Of a stretch of DNA of 64,000 bases, positions 56,516 to 56,732 are shown piece by piece (positions within the stretch are counted from its first letter, which is position 1; the number at the start of each line of letters is the position of its first letter). The stretch comes from Escherichia coli O127:H6 str. E2348/69 (GTDB lineage: Bacteria > Pseudomonadota > Gammaproteobacteria > Enterobacterales > Enterobacteriaceae): the NCBI RefSeq assembly GCF_000026545.1, contig NC_011601.1; one strand, written 5' to 3'. Under the pieces are notes generated by a model. That model was not told where the DNA came from. It did no database searches and worked only from the letters and a program-made list of their open reading frames with translations. Position numbers and translations under genes: made by a program.

Positions 56516-56732
56516 TTACGCTACCATGCTAATAATCAACACCATAATCAGCCCAACCACGGAGTTGACCAGCTCCAGCAGACCCCAGGTTTTCAACGTG
56601 TCTTTTACTGACAGGTCAAAGTAATCTAAGAGGCATTGCTAATGTAGGGAATGTGTCTGAACCTGCGGTCATTGTCAGTACCAGCATCAGACCAATGCCG
56701 AATACCACTCAGAGAATGTTAAGCACATGCAT
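56516..56732 (-). pseudogene. gntP: Remnant of a gluconate:H+ symporter (GntP-family) gene: N-terminal about 20 codons fused out of frame to the C-terminal about 35 codons
   Basis: Minus-strand translation gives [25 protein letters not shown]... then, in another frame, ...[33 protein letters not shown]; a hairpin terminator follows the stop. Only about 217 bp where an intact gene would be about 1.3 kb. Confidence 0.6.

Follow-up and report, generated by a model that had tools for sequence, protein, structure and literature searches.

The gntP remnant between fimH and uxuA in Escherichia coli E2348/69: deletion junction, diverged island and distribution

The slot between fimH and uxuA in Escherichia coli O127:H6 strain E2348/69 holds a fragment of the transporter gene gntP, which failed every test for functional membership of the GntP family. 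The fragment was studied in the window, i.e., the whole stretch of 64,000 nucleotides that was analysed, and by comparison with K-12 and with 5426 complete E. coli genomes. With a probability of about 0.9, it is a non-functional remnant left by an ancestral in-frame loss of 1113 nt from gntP, in an allele that later spread and with which uptake by GntP was lost.

A gntP fragment in a conserved slot

Annotation of the locus was taken from the E2348/69 chromosome record NZ_CP059840.2, which is 100% identical to the window over the fimH-uxuA spacer (56341-57062). The genes fimI-C-D-F-G-H are located upstream of the remnant and uxuA, uxuB, uxuR and iraD downstream, all on the + strand of the window; like uxuA and uxuB, uxuR is intact (Table 1). 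In the same slot, K-12 strain RP437 contains, on the opposite strand, an intact gntP gene of 1344 nt, convergent with fimH and divergent from uxuA, just as the initial annotation had stated for K-12. The distance between the stop codon of fimH and the start codon of uxuA is 731 nt in the window vs. 1925 nt in K-12.

Table 1. Coordinates of the gntP remnant, its parts and its neighbours in the window.
Feature	Position	Strand	Remarks
fimH	55438-56340	+	Intact; last gene of the fim operon
Hairpin GAGCCTGCCATTGGCAGGCTC	56485-56505	.	9 bp, G+C-rich; between convergent fimH and gntP; identical to K-12
gntP remnant, ATG to TAA	56516-56732	-	217 nt vs. 1344 nt in K-12
Start codon ATG of the remnant	56732-56730	-
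Stop codon TAA of the remnant	56518-56516	-
3' fragment, residues 413-447 plus stop (last 36 codons)	56516-56624	-	107/109 nt identical to K-12
Island, 51 nt, collinear with gntP nt 1171-1239	56625-56675	-	14 substitutions in 48 aligned nt; deletions of 1 nt and 13 nt
Retained copy of 11-bp repeat TGCTGGTACTG, deletion junction	56676-56686	-	In-frame deletion of 1113 nt
5' fragment, codons 1-19 (nt 1-57)	56676-56732	-	56/57 nt identical to K-12
Codon 8, TGG to TGA (W8*)	56709-56711	-	5/5426 genomes
Divergent gntP/uxuA control region, 339 nt	56733-57071	.	Intact; 327/339 nt identical to K-12
Operator-like palindrome AAATTGGTCAACCA	56786-56799		In gntP/uxuA spacer
Promoter-like site of uxuA	56888-56915
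Operator-like palindrome TGGTTAACCAATTT	56896-56909		In gntP/uxuA spacer
uxuA	57072-58256	+	Intact
uxuB	58337-59797	+	Intact

The initial annotation had described a gntP remnant of ~220 bp that resulted from an internal deletion of ~1.1 kb. Both statements were borne out: the boundaries proved exact, the ends of the remnant are 97-98% identical to K-12, and the net shortening is 1344 - 217 = 1127 nt. When K-12 GntP was searched against the 64-kb window with tblastn, two matches were found, one comprising residues 1-21 (56732-56670; E 6e-4) and the other residues 413-447 (56623-56519; 97% identity; E 1.5e-14). Likewise, the NCBIfam equivalog NF007459 (“gluconate permease GntP”) matched the 5' fragment of the remnant with profile positions 1-22 (24.8 bits; E 1e-5) and its 3' fragment with positions 412-447 of 447 (60 bits; E 2e-16). 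At the nucleotide level, 136/140 positions are identical to K-12 in 56485-56624, i.e., the 3' end and the hairpin, and 375/388 in 56675-57062, i.e., the 5' end and the control region. These matches exclude an origin of the fragments outside gntP, and descent from this gene follows from the identity of both ends together with the conserved slot, neighbours and orientation. An intact gene elsewhere, the other objection foreseen in the initial annotation, was not encountered: tblastn with K-12 GntP revealed no second gntP copy in the 64-kb window, and the E2348/69 chromosome record contains a single place matching the gntP ends.

What is left of the gene had been described as only the first ~20 and the last ~35 codons. 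This is close to the codons 1-19 and the last 36 codons, including the stop, that are present, but the diverged piece of 51 nt in the middle had been missed. The remnant did not yield a full-length match to NF007459 above the curated cutoff (647 bits for the 447-position profile). Also the conserved C-terminal motif of GntP, which is invariant from E. coli to the orthologs in Gilliamella, is not retained, as the sequence in the remnant is TMTAGSDTF(frameshift)YISNA, without SFWLFKG. Compared with K-12 gntP (b4321), which encodes a fructuronate/gluconate:H+ symporter of the GntP family and forms part of the UxuR regulon, the remnant occupies the same fimH/gntP/uxuA slot on the opposite strand and shares the promoter/operator region, the start codon, the first 19 and last 36 codons, and the downstream hairpin. 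In contrast, besides being 1127 nt shorter, it lacks residues 20-390, a frameshift and mutations of invariant residues affect the internal piece that is left, and codon 8 is a stop. It cannot encode a permease of 12-14 helices.

The two operator-like palindromes in the control region form an inverted pair that is conserved with K-12 and fits a region of the UxuR/ExuR type, which makes them putative operators. In K-12, UxuR binds the gntP/uxuA spacer (PMC5934670). The hairpin downstream of the remnant, which the initial annotation had correctly reported to be still present, is stable on both strands. A terminator consensus scan called it on the + strand only, i.e., that of fimH, where it is followed by a T-run, and the tail on the gntP strand, UGUUCGGAUUGUC, provides a weak U-run. 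As a proper T-run is present on the fimH side only, the hairpin is most aptly regarded as a putative terminator that the convergent genes would share. No Rfam match was found in the remnant or the spacer at E ≤ 1.

Elsewhere in the window, yjgR (12399-13913) and ahr (14043-15062) are 129 nt apart, without idn genes in between (~13914-14042). In K-12 RP437, this position is occupied by idnK-idnDOTR (L-idonate/GntII), which includes idnT for a transporter of the GntP family, and the idn cluster is a second sugar-acid transporter locus missing within this window. The leuX island of E2348/69 (~15258-46100, from the tRNA-Leu gene leuX to nanC) is dense in defence genes. It encodes a type I restriction-modification system (hsdM/S/R), McrBC, a restriction endonuclease binding phosphorothioated DNA and an AbiTii-domain protein, as well as a DEAD/DEAH helicase, an integrase and a recombinase; at this site, K-12 carries fec, yjh and sgc genes, including yjhF of the GntP family. 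Beside nanM (window ~42580-43996; record 4252268-4253684), pseudogenes are found for a sialate O-acetylesterase truncated at the C-terminus and for an HNH endonuclease with an internal stop.

Junction, reading frame and diverged island

The initial annotation proposed to align the fragments with an intact gntP in search of the breakpoints and of microhomology. This alignment revealed the repeat TGCTGGTACTG. K-12 gntP contains two copies, at nt 47-57 (codons 16-19) and at nt 1160-1170, which share their codon phase, and the remnant a single one, at nt 47-57. In a gene of the K-12 type, loss from repeat to repeat amounts to 1113 nt, i.e., 371 codons, and is in frame. Thus, in the intact allele, the lost segment lies between the repeats, of which one copy is left at the junction. 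In some intact alleles, such as that of E. coli E69, the second copy contains GTG instead of GTA, so that the repeat is 10/11 there.

Deletions between short direct repeats, arising by slipped-strand mispairing independently of RecA, are classically known from lacI of E. coli. The gntP remnant resembles such lacI-type deletions in that, in the parent, copies of an 11-bp direct repeat stand on both sides of the segment and one copy is found at the junction. However, unlike in those deletions, the junction is not clean, since the adjoining 48 nt on its 3' side are 29% diverged and contain two extra small deletions. A clean repeat-to-repeat deletion allele was found in 0 of the 5426 complete genomes when these were searched by blastn with a synthetic junction query. 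As this clean intermediate is absent, slippage in a single step followed by ordinary decay is not demonstrated. The synthetic clean-deletion query aligned straight across the island in one blastn piece of 271 nt with 89% identity. The sole odd match to it was in E. coli HH45 (locus ~1555-1600), where the 5' end of gntP runs to nt 60, is followed by the filler GAGTCCGGGGGGGGGGGGGC, which is poly-G, and resumes exactly at nt 1171 with a K-12-like 3' part. This deletion may reflect a fault in assembly or have arisen independently at the same repeat.

The two ends of the remnant are indeed in different frames, with the start in minus frame 0 and the C-terminal part in frame 1. The initial annotation, however, had attributed this to the way the ends were joined, whereas the 1113-nt join itself is in frame and the shift is due to the secondary deletions of 1 nt and 13 nt. 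The in-frame TGA at codon 8 was confirmed: this codon is TGG in K-12 and in the deletion alleles of strains PU-1 and TW10722, and TGA in E2348/69, two O127:H6 isolates, a monkey isolate and a pig isolate. As the stop is almost private to this group and the deletion is older, it is a late mutation in an already dead gene.

Together, the steps were as follows. In an ancestral E. coli, the 1113 nt were lost that the two copies of TGCTGGTACTG exactly enclose in gntP of the K-12 type, presumably through slippage during replication or a different RecA-independent deletion that relies on short homology. The allele also contains the 13-nt and 1-nt deletions and ~14 substitutions in the 48 nt next to the junction, which are present in every extant copy, with the shift in frame as a result. 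The deletion allele then persisted, spread through the species and is now found as two haplotypes, and the sub-lineage of E2348/69 gained the change of W8 to TGA.

The island between the junction and the 3' fragment was left unaligned in the first BLAST against K-12, except for a 75% match just 5' of the 3' fragment. Its derivation from gntP is indicated by a local alignment score of 18.5 with nt 1171-1239 of the gene, as compared to 10.4 ± 1.3 for shuffled sequences, 0 out of 1000 of which reached 18.5. Moreover, in a set of 80 gntP orthologs and relatives, many orthologs of other genera are matched best by the island at this very position. Divergence from K-12 is ~29% in the island vs. 1-2% in the abutting fragments, which differ at one site in 57 nt and two sites in 109 nt, respectively (Fisher p < 2e-7, on a conservative count). 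In neighbouring genes, E2348/69 and K-12 diverge by 4-8% at third codon positions. The contrast between the island and its flanks is not what uniform neutral decay predicts.

That the island represents a real molecular footprint rather than ordinary decay is doubtful, and such a footprint could take two forms. Error-prone or template-switching synthesis may have generated it in a burst as the deletion occurred. Alternatively, the allele may be far older than its flanks imply; recombination with intact alleles may have homogenised the flanks up to both heterology borders and left the island isolated. A hint for such resetting of the flanks is the substitution C1320T, which the 3' fragment of E2348/69 shares with the intact ST131 allele; the PU-1 fragment is K-12-like.

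Two repeats connect the region to the fimH-proximal side. An exact 11-nt direct repeat, CATTGCTAATG, is present at 56354-56364, just 3' of fimH, and at 56634-56644, inside the island, i.e., 280 nt apart. As K-12 gntP has CATCGTTAATG at the latter site, it was created by two of the island substitutions; by our own estimate (p ~0.02), it could have arisen by chance. In addition, an inverted pair of 13-mers (56359-56371 and 56678-56690) links the fimH-proximal site to the deletion junction.

It is improbable that the island, instead of being gntP sequence that decayed, was patched in during the rearrangement from a paralog or a foreign gene of the GntP family, by gene conversion or as templated filler. 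Such a patch would account for the sharp borders of the divergent stretch, which are set by the large deletion on one side and the 13-nt deletion on the other, and for three substitutions that coincide with synonymous variants seen in other genera. Also, gntP alleles can be mosaic, as in E. coli Trh52, where 45 of 65 differences fall in nt 299-680. However, nine of the changes in the island replace residues that show no variation from E. coli to Gilliamella, which argues that it was not copied from a working ortholog. Furthermore, no donor was found. There was none beyond the junction site in the complete E. coli genomes (E ≤ 10; n = 5426), the codon-degenerate pattern ACNAWGACNGCNGGNTCNGAYACNTTY gave 0 matches in the GTDB species representatives, and none of the 80 gntP orthologs and relatives beats gntP itself. 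The scores of four K-12 paralogs, idnT, yjhF, gntT and gntU (8.5-13.5), are at the level of shuffled sequences. The intact divergent gntP alleles of Trh52 and ST131 were rejected as parents of the island, since their 3' regions are K-12-like. As for the gntP gene of E. coli O84:H7 Trh52 itself (locus 1316-2659), it is intact, and the local divergence from K-12 of about 12% in its nt 299-680 suggests that this segment was imported from a divergent donor.

Distribution of the deletion allele

The complete genomes were searched with probes of 81 nt and 62 nt across the junction and the island. Both elements are present in 853 of the 5426 genomes (~16%, about one in six), as one chromosomal match per genome and nowhere else, except for a single genome with two places. 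The missing interior of gntP was found in 4538 genomes and is absent from 888. The sum of 4538 and 853 is 5391, which equals the number of genomes matching any gntP end; this is consistent with mutual exclusion of the two alleles and with absence of the entire locus from ~35 genomes.

Two haplotypes of the deletion allele can be distinguished, which differ at 5 of the 81 probe positions. The first, in ~155 genomes, is at least 99% identical to the probe (e.g., UM146, NC101-type strains, PU-1), and the second, in ~670 genomes, is ~94% identical (e.g., ATCC 8739, TW10722, several STEC). In an alignment of E2348/69, PU-1 and TW10722, the junction, both small deletions (1 nt and 13 nt) and nearly all substitutions of the island were common to the two haplotypes. 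In the TW10722-type haplotype, the 3' gntP fragment has lost a further 12 nt, and a few additional changes are found. In the fimH-gntP spacer, TW10722 (locus 2454-3240, corresponding to window 56341-57071) has a REP-like insertion of ~69 nt, and the REP region at 56380-56460 differs among E2348/69, PU-1 and K-12. The fimH and uxuA flanks do not group by deletion status; hence, the allele occurs in a variety of backgrounds.

Transcription from the gntP promoter probably continues and yields a short RNA, either untranslated or encoding a junk peptide, that ends at the shared hairpin. It is very improbable, more so than a foreign origin of the island, that the remnant has been kept for a new function, as a membrane peptide of 37-38 amino acids or as a small RNA controlled by UxuR. 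In most deletion alleles, an open frame does follow the intact promoter and start codon (38 codons in PU-1 and 37 in TW10722), and the allele is frequent. However, all three differences between the haplotypes inside the island change an amino acid, and the frame is cut at codon 8 in E2348/69, which led to the rejection of a conserved small open reading frame. The lack of an Rfam match and the loss of a further 12 nt in the TW10722-type haplotype likewise argue against a retained RNA or peptide, and a neutral remnant of 217 nt is expected to persist anyway.

A recent deletion specific to E2348/69 or the EPEC1 lineage, which the wording of the initial annotation could suggest, is refuted and retains next to no probability: although no more than 32 records match the 722-nt fimH-uxuA spacer with at least 99% identity and the stop at codon 8 is confined to five genomes, the identical junction, island and small deletions in 853 genomes of unrelated backgrounds, divided over two haplotypes and with flanks that do not group by deletion status, as against 4538 genomes with the interior, point to an old allele coexisting with the intact gene.

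Prior annotation and implications

The remnant is an ordinary gene-loss polymorphism that had already been annotated as a pseudogene. In RefSeq, PGAP lists pseudogene H4J01_RS25880 (“GntT/GntP/DsdX family permease”, incomplete, missing N-terminus; 108 nt, window 56516-56623), which is the same DNA as the 3' fragment of the remnant and has equivalents in ~850 other genomes, many of them labelled merely “hypothetical protein.” This annotation does not include the 5' fragment, the junction, the island or the stop at codon 8. Since about one-sixth of the genomes share the deletion and the pseudogene is publicly annotated, the finding is correct but ordinary. New are the details, i.e., a junction that is in frame and bounded by the repeat, the hyperdivergent island, the private TGA and the frequency of 16% in two haplotypes. 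Of these, only the sharply bounded, hypermutated 51 nt at the junction are a curiosity of wider interest. If the allele is indeed much older than its flanks imply, E. coli would have been polymorphic for the presence or absence of gntP for a very long time, possibly in a balanced manner.

In the literature, one table lists gntP among the variable genes, with 17 of 27 E. coli/Shigella genomes containing it (PMC3318445), although another paper calls the gene universal in E. coli (PMC3661140). The absence of its interior from 888 of the 5426 genomes corrects the latter statement. Within the UxuR regulon, GntP is described as the protein that transports fructuronate (Bates Utz et al., 2004, through citations in PMC9369180 and PMC5934670). 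Judged from their sequence, carriers of the deletion would lack GntP-mediated uptake of fructuronate as well as the minor, low-affinity uptake of gluconate by GntP. As UxuA and UxuB of the Ashwell pathway, UxuR and the control region are all kept, glucuronate arriving by other routes should still be usable. Thus, E2348/69, ATCC 8739, NC101 and UM146, and with them ~16% of the genomes, are without GntP and have kept uxuAB-uxuR, which bears on models of how sugar acids are used in the gut.
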